64,000 nucleotides of DNA from Justusliebigvirus VEcB. Numbering within the stretch: position 1 is the first letter of the stretch; the number at the start of each line of letters is the position of its first letter. Position numbers and translations under genes: made by a program. Positions 60,041 to 60,125 of this stretch are shown here, one piece after another. The notes below the pieces were generated by a model, which had not been told where the DNA came from, did no database searches, and saw nothing but the letters and a program-made list of their open reading frames with translations. Where the stretch lies: the sequence record OZ035773.1. One strand, 5' to 3'.

Positions 60041-60125
60041 GATGGATTGGCCTAGTGGTTGGGCGACGGACTGTTAATCCGTGAACGAAAGTTCTAGCAA
60101 GGTTCAAATCCTTGATCCATCGCCA
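60041..60125 (+). tRNA. tRNA-Asn (anticodon GTT) with unusually long variable arm
   Basis: anticodon arm acgga-ctGTTaa-tccgt matches bacterial tRNA-Asn; 15 nt variable hairpin gaacgaaagttc; perfect acceptor; CCA. Confidence 0.6.

Follow-up and report, generated by a model that had tools for sequence, protein, structure and literature searches.

A tRNA-Asn(GUU) with a class-II-like variable arm in a Justusliebigvirus tRNA array: a conserved, almost exclusively viral architecture with a possible role against anticodon-stem nucleases

Long variable arms are, according to the textbook view, restricted to the tRNAs for leucine, serine, bacterial tyrosine and selenocysteine, and the arm is taken as an identity mark. 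The stretch of Justusliebigvirus VEcB analysed here (sequence record OZ035773.1; 64,000 nucleotides (nt), hereafter the window) carries a tRNA-Asn(GUU) gene whose variable region is a 15-nt hairpin, which raises the question of whether this tRNA is charged with Asn, mischarged, or used for something other than decoding, as an earlier note made from the sequence alone had put it. The gene is routinely annotated as tRNA-Asn, the label that the depositors of related phage records use, and its class-II-like architecture is apparently undescribed: in the literature searched, whose coverage leaves out most subscription journals, we found no paper that describes a long-arm tRNA-Asn or discusses the variable arms that phage tRNAs carry. 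On balance, our analysis tips slightly in favor of a working tRNA-Asn of the phage's own, built on a class-II-like scaffold whose arm would shield it from tRNases.

ARAGORN calls tRNA-Asn(gtt) at exactly 60041-60125 (+), 85 nt, and the best-scoring family of the tRNA clan over this interval is Rfam RF00005, with 56.5 bits against a gathering score of 29. The unconstrained minimum-free-energy (MFE) fold (-29.5 kcal/mol, z = -2.57) is the same five-arm cloverleaf as in the ARAGORN drawing, so that the alternative fold with a different anticodon envisaged in the earlier note does not materialize. The gene is built as follows:

60041-60125, plus strand: tRNA-Asn(GUU) gene of class-II-like architecture, CCA encoded (ARAGORN, Rfam, MFE fold)
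60041-60047, plus strand: acceptor 5' strand GATGGAT, with G1-C72, A2-U71 and U3-A70 (sequence, ARAGORN drawing)
60050-60064, plus strand: D arm GCC-TAGTGGTTG-GGC, with three Watson-Crick pairs and a possible U13-G22 wobble; A14, G18G19
60066-60082, plus strand: anticodon arm ACGGA-CTGTTAA-TCCGT; positions 36-41 are UAAUCC, the cleavage motif of the nuclease AriB in the host tRNA
60073-60075, plus strand: anticodon GTT, reading AAC and AAU (ARAGORN)
60083-60097, plus strand: variable arm of 15 nt, GAAC-GAAA-GTTC-TAG (ARAGORN drawing, MFE fold, covariation)
60083-60086 with 60091-60094, plus strand: variable-arm stem GAAC/GTTC, 4 bp
60087-60090, plus strand: GAAA tetraloop of the variable arm
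60095-60097, plus strand: 3-nt spacer TAG, 3' of the variable-arm stem
60098-60114, plus strand: T arm CAAGG-TTCAAAT-CCTTG (sequence, ARAGORN drawing)
60115-60125, plus strand: acceptor 3' strand ATCCATC, then G73 (60122) and CCA (60123-60125) (sequence, ARAGORN drawing)

The main features listed in the earlier note, namely a GUU anticodon on a host-like anticodon arm, a 15-nt variable hairpin of type-II length and a short D stem, are all borne out by this fold. Indeed, the 17-nt anticodon stem-loop equals that of E. coli tRNA-Asn, a reference found at 100% identity in 5,425 of 5,426 genomes, at 16 of 17 positions, the only difference being a G to A change at position 27. On the other hand, the type-I architecture of bacterial tRNA-Asn, with a variable loop of 4-5 nt, is replaced by a variable region of 15 nt. 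The acceptor and T stems have 7 and 5 bp and match none of the 8/5, 9/4, 8/4 and 9/3 structures of tRNA-Sec and allo-tRNAs. The nucleotides of the tertiary fold (U8, A14, GG and TTCAAAT) are present, G15 and G48 occupy the Levitt positions, and position 17 of the D-loop is missing.

A sequencing artefact, which the earlier note had kept in mind for the insertion, is excluded because the 85-mer recurs at 99% identity or more in 52 phage records. Diverged long-arm tRNA-Asn genes of 82-86 nt are found in Phapecoctavirus, in Klebsiella relatives, in Salmonella phage PVP-SE1 (Vequintavirinae) and in many T5-like Demerecviridae, and full-length blastn matches of 84-85 nt fall on annotated tRNA-Asn of T4-like phages such as CC31, PKO111 and CHI14. 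Two pattern scans of IMG/VR supplied further homologues, jumbo-phage contigs included, from 42 matches in the first scan and from among the matches listed in the second. After ARAGORN and parsing, the family comprises at least 119 distinct, well-formed long-arm tRNA-Asn(GUU) sequences from viral contigs. Run over 185,579 bacterial and archaeal species (one genome each, 596 Gb), the same pattern gave 6 matches, of which 4 contain no tRNA and the other 2 are phage-like tRNA arrays on contigs of metagenome-assembled genomes (MAGs); the 85-mer had no blastn match in 5,426 E. coli genomes, even at E = 10. Long-arm tRNA-Asn is a large conserved class, almost exclusively viral. The restriction of long arms to Leu, Ser, Tyr and Sec, on which the earlier note relied, holds for cells, where the two real matches are both phage-like arrays, and fails for phages, which have long-arm Asn, Thr, Cys, Met, Lys, Trp and other tRNAs. 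One 20-kb contig binned in a Methanothrix MAG carries an 11-tRNA array with two different tandem long-arm tRNA-Asn genes of 90 and 86 nt (L057 4197-4376); it very likely stems from a phage and was binned with the archaeal genome in error.

The arm is conserved as a structure in this class. In a MAFFT alignment of the 119 homologues, made without fitting to a structure, pairing across the whole cloverleaf reaches 90%, where shuffles give 56%, and the covariation score is 0.833 against 0.199; the D-stem pairs form in 98.9%, and both of their strands show changes. For the three inner pairs of the variable helix by themselves, pairing is 76.8%, where shuffles give 42.5%; the covariation score of this helix, 0.686 against 0.181, is reached by 0 of 500 shuffles and falls to 0.07-0.25 when the partners are slid. 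The 119 homologues contain 75 different arm-stem sequences, and their mean best hairpin measures 3.50 bp against 2.77 +/- 0.06 bp in shuffled arms. Since the helix covaries through so many different stems and its hairpins exceed those of shuffled arms, the variable arm is, on the evidence of this alignment, under purifying selection for structure. Its length is 11-20 nt (mode 15) with a stem of 3-4 bp, GNRA loops occur in 63 of the 119 members, and 82 have 3-4 unpaired bases 3' of the stem. Furthermore, U8 is kept in 111 members, and the last variable base is position 48 of the Levitt pair, which is G15:C48 in 48 sequences and A15:U48 in 26; this 15:48 covariation is as expected for a properly folded L-shape in the family.

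Which amino acid this body receives can be judged from its identity elements. Bacterial Asn identity resides in the three anticodon bases and G73, and a different tRNA body can acquire it by transplantation of these elements (PMC9976931). The window tRNA holds the full set, G34, U35 and U36 (60073-60075) together with G73 (60122), and G73 is found in 106 of the 119 family members. The first pair is U1-A72 in 68 members and G1-C72 in 45; the window tRNA has G1-C72 and thus is without U1-A72, the amidotransferase determinant typical of bacterial tRNA-Asn. E. coli has a direct asparaginyl-tRNA synthetase (AsnRS), and U1-A72 is not required there. Long-arm and short Asn tRNAs from the same loci have similar acceptor ends (U1-A72 in 57% versus 55%, G73 in 89% versus 93%), and this profile differs from that of phage tRNA-Ser, with G2-C71 in 96% and A3-U70 in 84%. 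Phage tRNA-Tyr and tRNA-Leu have A73 in 97-98%, and G73 is an antideterminant for the tyrosyl- and leucyl-tRNA synthetases; the window tRNA further departs from tRNA-Tyr by U36 in place of A36, its anticodon not being GUA.

The earlier note had suggested that seryl-tRNA synthetase (SerRS) might mischarge this tRNA. Four SerRS features were examined: the long arm and G73 are present, the latter being common to Ser and Asn identity and therefore non-discriminating between them, while G2-C71 and the arm geometry of tRNA-Ser are absent. The pairs G1-C72 and G2-C71 occur together in 18 of 119 long-arm Asn tRNAs versus 71 of 90 phage tRNA-Ser, and the window tRNA has A2-U71. Its 3-nt 3' spacer is Tyr-like, whereas phage tRNA-Ser has 0-2 unpaired bases there in 30 of 34 cases. 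The suggestion is therefore not supported by A2-U71, by the Asn-like profile at 1:72, 2:71 and 73, or by the Tyr-like arm geometry. Moreover, viral arrays hold long-arm tRNAs for Thr, Cys, Met, Lys, Ile, Trp, Asp, Pro, His and Glu with isotype-appropriate discriminators, and since these isotypes keep their own discriminators, the arm is no serine-identity signal in viral arrays. Long arms account for 10 of 41 Cys and 9 of 79 Met tRNAs and occur on Lys with both UUU and CUU anticodons (ARAGORN, viral loci), these shares being biased by the selection of loci for holding a long-arm Asn; none was seen on Arg, Gln, Val, Phe or Gly tRNAs in the viral loci examined. Example loci with other long-arm isotypes are L064 9032-9115, L101 3422-3594, L102 8996-9214, L106 and L156. 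Judging by these elements, the window tRNA is very probably charged with Asn by the host AsnRS and used as a normal Asn decoder, and mischarging with serine is unlikely because the acceptor-end features match those of ordinary Asn tRNAs and not those of Ser, Tyr or Leu.

For the role of the arm, the cleavage motif offers a lead. The host tRNA-Asn(GUU) is a documented target of two anti-phage TOPRIM nucleases, AriB and P2 OLD. [quoted passage not shown] P2 OLD also cleaves tRNA-Asn(GUU) (PMC12445682). In the window tRNA, the variable arm starts at position 44, directly 3' of the strand that AriB cuts, and the cleavage site is free of substitutions, positions 36-41 being UAAUCC as in the host. 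By contrast, the type-I tRNAs for Lys and Thr in the same window are altered, to UAACUC and UAAGCA, respectively.

The same contrast appears when positions 36-41 are compared with the host in distinct sequences from enterobacterial isolate phages. The motif is host-identical in 1 of 28 short-arm tRNAs (Lys(UUU) 0/15, Thr(UGU) 0/9, Asn 1/4) and in 16 of 17 long-arm ones (Asn 13/14, Thr(UGU) 3/3), counts that are suggestive and carry no formal statistic because the sequences are phylogenetically related and come from few lineages. This distribution suggests, as far as sequences can tell, two alternative solutions to the same threat: to mutate the cut site, or to add an arm. The type-I tRNA-Asn of Salmonella phage Det7 (L176 56-131) is nearly host-identical over positions 8-48 except for the 31-39 pair, which is flipped from A-U to U-A, that is, U39 to A; to judge from its sequence, this flip looks like a minimal escape mutation. 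Genes for long-arm tRNA-Thr(UGU), 82-87 nt in length, occur in about 100 records of T5-like phages and also in viral contigs from metagenomes (L172 12775-12861 in phage Bas33, L012 4406-4492 and L034 8998-9084; also L013, L039, L072, L082, L084, L133, L135 and L156). Those of T5-like phages keep the AriB/OLD motif UAAUCA, whereas 9 of 9 distinct type-I phage Thr(UGU) do not.

Published phage experiments can be re-read in this light; their authors made no comment on the long-arm architecture, and the reading is our re-analysis. Under PARIS, T7 needs Lys and Thr and T5Mos needs Lys, Thr and Asn, while Bas33 (HildyBeyeler) is rescued by T5 tRNA-Lys alone (PMC12409363). Bas33 contains no Lys(UUU) tRNA; its long-arm Asn is intact, it also encodes a long-arm Thr(UGU), and in both of them the motif is that of the host. 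That Bas33 does without added tRNA-Asn under PARIS, unlike T5Mos and Bas34, is indirect evidence for charging of the long-arm form with Asn. Against P2 OLD, Bas33 Thr(UGU) rescues strongly, T5 type-I Thr only partly. Bas34 (SelmaRatti) needed T5 tRNA-Asn under PARIS although encoding one (PMC12409363). Its tRNA-Asn (MZ501103, L060 401-483) is in fact a chimera: as far as the T loop it is the long-arm Asn, and beyond that it continues into a foreign 3' acceptor strand, ACCCGCT, which is unable to pair with the 5' strand GGGTCGT. ARAGORN does not call this gene; the defect probably explains the phenotype, which was left open in PMC12409363. We therefore rejected Bas34 as a failure of long-arm Asn against PARIS, the chimeric gene being uninformative. 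The control "phage tRNA-Asn" from SP15 used by Azam et al. is exactly the common T5-like long-arm sequence. Taken together, these data indicate that long-arm tRNAs function in E. coli translation and withstand these nucleases, the arm being a candidate cause. Two further candidates for arm evidence were discarded. T5's own tRNA-Asn is of type I (78 nt) with a mutated anticodon stem and UAAGUU at positions 36-41, so that neither its PARIS rescue data nor a GenBank amber-suppressor note tests the arm, and Bas32 Thr(UGU), published as intact under OLD, is also of type I (75 nt).

The explanation that we favor would run as follows. The tRNA-Asn would be transcribed within the tRNA array and processed like its neighbors; the host AsnRS would charge it through G34-U35-U36 and G73, and the charged tRNA would decode AAC and AAU, codons that are frequent in the AT-rich phage. 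The extra hairpin (3-4 bp, GNRA loop, 3-nt spacer) would be a selected structural add-on and no serine identity mark. By altering the shape of the tRNA beside the 3' strand of the anticodon stem, it would cause AriB and P2 OLD to fail to dock or to cut at 40/41, and the phage tRNA could keep a host-identical anticodon arm instead of the cut-site mutation seen in short-arm phage tRNAs. For the anti-nuclease role of the arm taken on its own, which draws on the motif association and the Bas33 phenotypes, our confidence stays somewhat below even. Yet more tentatively, the class-II arm might be a portable, virus-specific "armour", a second and so far unrecognised escape from anticodon-stem tRNases such as AriB and P2 OLD, used on Asn, on Thr and possibly on Cys, Met, Lys, Trp and others; such armour would keep the synthetase and decoding properties perfect while blocking nuclease docking.

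Several points weigh against a protective arm. Class IIb synthetases approach the tRNA from the variable-loop side, so that the arm could in principle hinder AsnRS itself. Few independent lineages underlie the motif association (about 4-5 in the case of Asn, a single one for Thr), and it has one exception, phage MK-13, whose type-I Asn has retained the host motif. Resistance could also come from the D-loop instead of the arm; the window tRNA, as mentioned, lacks position 17, and many T5-like alleles have C at position 16. T4 and T7 needed no extra tRNA-Asn under PARIS, which makes Asn a secondary target and the argument from Bas33 weaker for Asn than for Thr. Finally, long arms also occur on non-targeted isoacceptors (Cys, Met, Ile and Trp) and in phages of undetermined hosts, and since these isoacceptors are not known as tRNase targets, a more general role of the arm is possible. 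Bacterial Schlafen cuts at 30/31, and no dependence on tRNA class is stated for it.

The rival that survives best, unlikely as we consider it, is that of a tolerated ornament: an ordinary codon-supply tRNA-Asn whose arm is a historical insertion without specific function, kept by descent and tolerated by AsnRS, EF-Tu and the ribosome. It agrees with an Asn identity that needs the anticodon and G73 only, and with an AT-rich phage in which Asn codons, mostly AAT, amount to about 50 per 1000 in the window's open reading frames (about 5% of codons). Part of the distribution also reflects shared descent, because the tRNA-Asn has moved horizontally between phage families as a module with a tRNA-like element related to rna3 of phage T5 (described below). 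However, such an arm fits poorly with a helix that covaries through 75 stems in 119 sequences at a fixed geometry (3-4 bp, GNRA loop, 3-4 nt spacer) and with an architecture essentially absent from cellular genomes, and neutrality does not predict the association between the arm and the host motif.

Clearly less probable is a general viral device, not directed at nucleases in particular, that stabilizes under-modified, highly expressed tRNAs or marks them for a phage factor acting in processing, repair or self/non-self distinction. Such a handle would suit the occurrence of long arms on many viral isoacceptors (Cys, Met, Ile, Trp, Lys, Asp, Pro, Glu and His) with isotype-appropriate discriminators, as well as the dominance of GNRA loops. 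However, no candidate partner protein for the arm was seen near the array within the window, and this explanation does not account for why it is the long-arm, and not the short-arm, Asn and Thr tRNAs that keep the host motif.

Even lower in our estimate stands a decoy, in which a host-identical anticodon arm on an uncleavable body would serve as tRNase bait or competitive inhibitor, decoding being secondary. The anticodon arm is indeed nearly host-identical, and the PARIS authors themselves raise competition for AriB by over-expressed viral tRNAs (PMC12409363). Nevertheless, a bait would hardly be expected to carry every Asn identity element, to have its CCA encoded and its tertiary-pair positions intact, or to be the only Asn tRNA of the phage, and in the case of OLD a phage Thr tRNA was shown to act by supplementing the tRNA pool, without inhibition of the nuclease. 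Last, serine insertion at some Asn codons, as recoding or mistranslation of the kind known from nev-tRNAs and allo-tRNAs, appears very improbable: SerRS does read the long arm and G73, the 15-nt arm has the length found in the phage's own tRNA-Ser(GCU), and some jumbo-phage members have D arms such as GCCGAGCGGTTGAAGGC, which we take to resemble those of bacterial tRNA-Ser, yet the acceptor end and the spacer are not those of tRNA-Ser, arms of this type are also carried by Thr, Cys, Lys, Met and His tRNAs whose discriminator is not G, a sole Asn tRNA would be misused in a phage so rich in Asn codons, and a T5-like member expressed in E. coli as a control had no toxicity reported in the paper.

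The tRNA-Asn belongs to a single array, at 58.9-62.2 kb of the window, in which ARAGORN finds 16 tRNA genes. This region shares 98-99% identity with the phi92-like myoviruses of E. coli that form the genus Justusliebigvirus (Stephanstirmvirinae), and a complete 148-kb Justusliebigvirus genome has 15 tRNAs in a single cluster, the long-arm gene being its only tRNA-Asn. Around this gene the order is Lys(UUU)-Tyr-Asn-Thr(UGU), the four being adjacent, with the following neighbors:

59866-59941, plus strand: tRNA-Lys(UUU), type I; positions 36-41 are UAACUC versus UAAUCA in the host (ARAGORN)
59947-60033, plus strand: tRNA-Tyr(GUA), ordinary class II, 7 nt upstream of tRNA-Asn; arm with a 3-nt 3' spacer (ARAGORN)
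60126-60204, plus strand: tRNA-like spacer, homologue of phage T5 "rna3" (alignment, fold, T5 annotation)
60205-60279, plus strand: tRNA-Thr(UGU), type I; positions 36-41 are UAAGCA, with position 39 changed from the host UAAUCA (ARAGORN)

A scan for sigma-70 promoters returned consensus-like sites at 59147, 59287 and 60640; the stretch just upstream of Lys-Tyr-Asn-Thr has none.

The 79-nt spacer between tRNA-Asn and tRNA-Thr (60126-60204) has no Rfam match, and its homologue in T5 is annotated "rna3, putative tRNA-like RNA". It folds into an acceptor-like stem, a hairpin with a 4-nt loop at the place of the anticodon arm and a T-arm-like hairpin (MFE -16.9 kcal/mol, z = -2.7). Similar elements lie at L010 (T5) 9878-9950 (-), L004 1587-1676 and L006 378-460, and the element is found 3' of tRNA-Asn in T5, with the type-I allele, in Lindwurm and GreteKellenberger, with the long-arm allele, and in phAPEC8. 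From its sequence relationships, the pair of Asn and rna3 appears to have been exchanged as a module between sipho- and myoviruses. At the Cys-Asn-(rna3)-Asp position, T5-like phages come in two forms, with a type-I Asn in about 135 records and the long-arm allele in about 270, as seen by comparing L010 9953-10525 (T5) with L006, L059, L172 and L175. The T5 type-I Asn overlaps a coding sequence that is annotated in some records as a homing endonuclease or a T5orf172-domain protein, which suggests an allele replacement driven by a homing endonuclease.

Elsewhere in the array, Rfam scores 59187-59265 (+) as a tRNA with 38.6 bits, which is above threshold, and ARAGORN makes no call there; this interval, which lies between tRNA-Leu(TAA) and tRNA-Ser(TGA), may hold a degenerate or unusual tRNA, and the TTGACA/TATAGT promoter-like site at 59147-59175 lies just upstream of it. 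Two more tRNAs have a CAT anticodon, at 61744-61819 (+) and 61835-61913 (+); their candidate identities are elongator Met, initiator, or Ile2 by way of lysidine. The second, of 79 nt, has its anticodon at position 37, with an enlarged D region, and corresponds to a phAPEC8 gene that carries the annotation "tRNA-Pseudo-CAT". The viral loci examined also contain 52 distinct short-arm tRNA-Leu sequences (anticodons TAG, TAA, CAA, CAG and GAG), of 74-79 nt, with a variable loop of 5-6 nt and A73 kept. They occur in PVP-SE1 (L003 2288-2364), in the T5-like loci L012, L017, L031 and L042, in L014 (four genes), and in L020, L024 and L049. Such type-I tRNA-Leu in the same arrays could be the mirror-image trick, directed against nucleases that recognise the class-II shape.

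Compared with known tRNAs, the window gene shares with E. coli tRNA-Asn (asnT/U/V/W) the GUU anticodon, G73, the CUGUUAA loop and nearly all of the anticodon stem-loop, which is 17/17 identical in the homologues from phAPEC8 and Klebsiella phi1_175008; like bacterial tRNA-Asn, family members often start with UCC and U1-A72. It differs from the E. coli tRNA by its 15-nt hairpin in place of the 5-nt variable loop AUGUC, by G1-C72, by a D stem of three Watson-Crick pairs and a wobble instead of four pairs, and by the missing position 17. With class-II tRNA-Tyr it shares the long arm with its short stem, tetraloop and 3-nt 3' spacer and the 3-bp D stem, but not A73 and A36, which are replaced by G73 and U36. 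When the arm and the anticodon loop are left out, the best-of-class identity of the window tRNA is 0.71 to Tyr, 0.71 to Gln and Lys, and 0.68 to short Asn; long-arm Asn tRNAs without variable region and anticodon loop likewise give best identities of 0.70-0.78 to Tyr, Lys, Gln, Pro and short Asn alike. A descent from the adjacent tRNA-Tyr (GUA to GUU, A73 to G73) or from tRNA-Ser was thus rejected for want of a specific class affinity, and descent from a class-II tRNA is unproven because no specific affinity for Tyr, Ser or Leu appears.

As for phage tRNAs that counter host defence, the window cluster Lys-Tyr-Asn-Thr resembles them in supplying phage copies of exactly the isoacceptors that AriB cuts. 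Unlike the T5 tRNA-Asn (78 nt, UAAGUU), its tRNA-Asn keeps the host site and has an arm instead. Nematode nev-tRNAs are class-II bodies with non-cognate anticodons that recode codons, and they share with allo-tRNAs and the window tRNA a long variable arm combined with an anticodon normally found on a type-I tRNA. However, nev-tRNAs and allo-tRNAs have bodies of Leu or Ser identity and serve recoding, and allo-tRNAs have 8/4 or 9/3 acceptor/T stems, whereas the window tRNA has a 7/5 structure with an acceptor end and a discriminator that follow the isotype of its anticodon. In the viral long-arm class as a whole, identity elements follow the anticodon, which means that tRNA architecture is separable from tRNA identity. 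If the arm protects, tRNA shape would be a new axis of the arms race, beside anticodon-loop and stem substitutions, and this would help to explain why Bas33 needs tRNA-Lys only and why Bas34 needs tRNA-Asn despite "encoding" one. It would also provide a design principle for nuclease-resistant orthogonal tRNAs.

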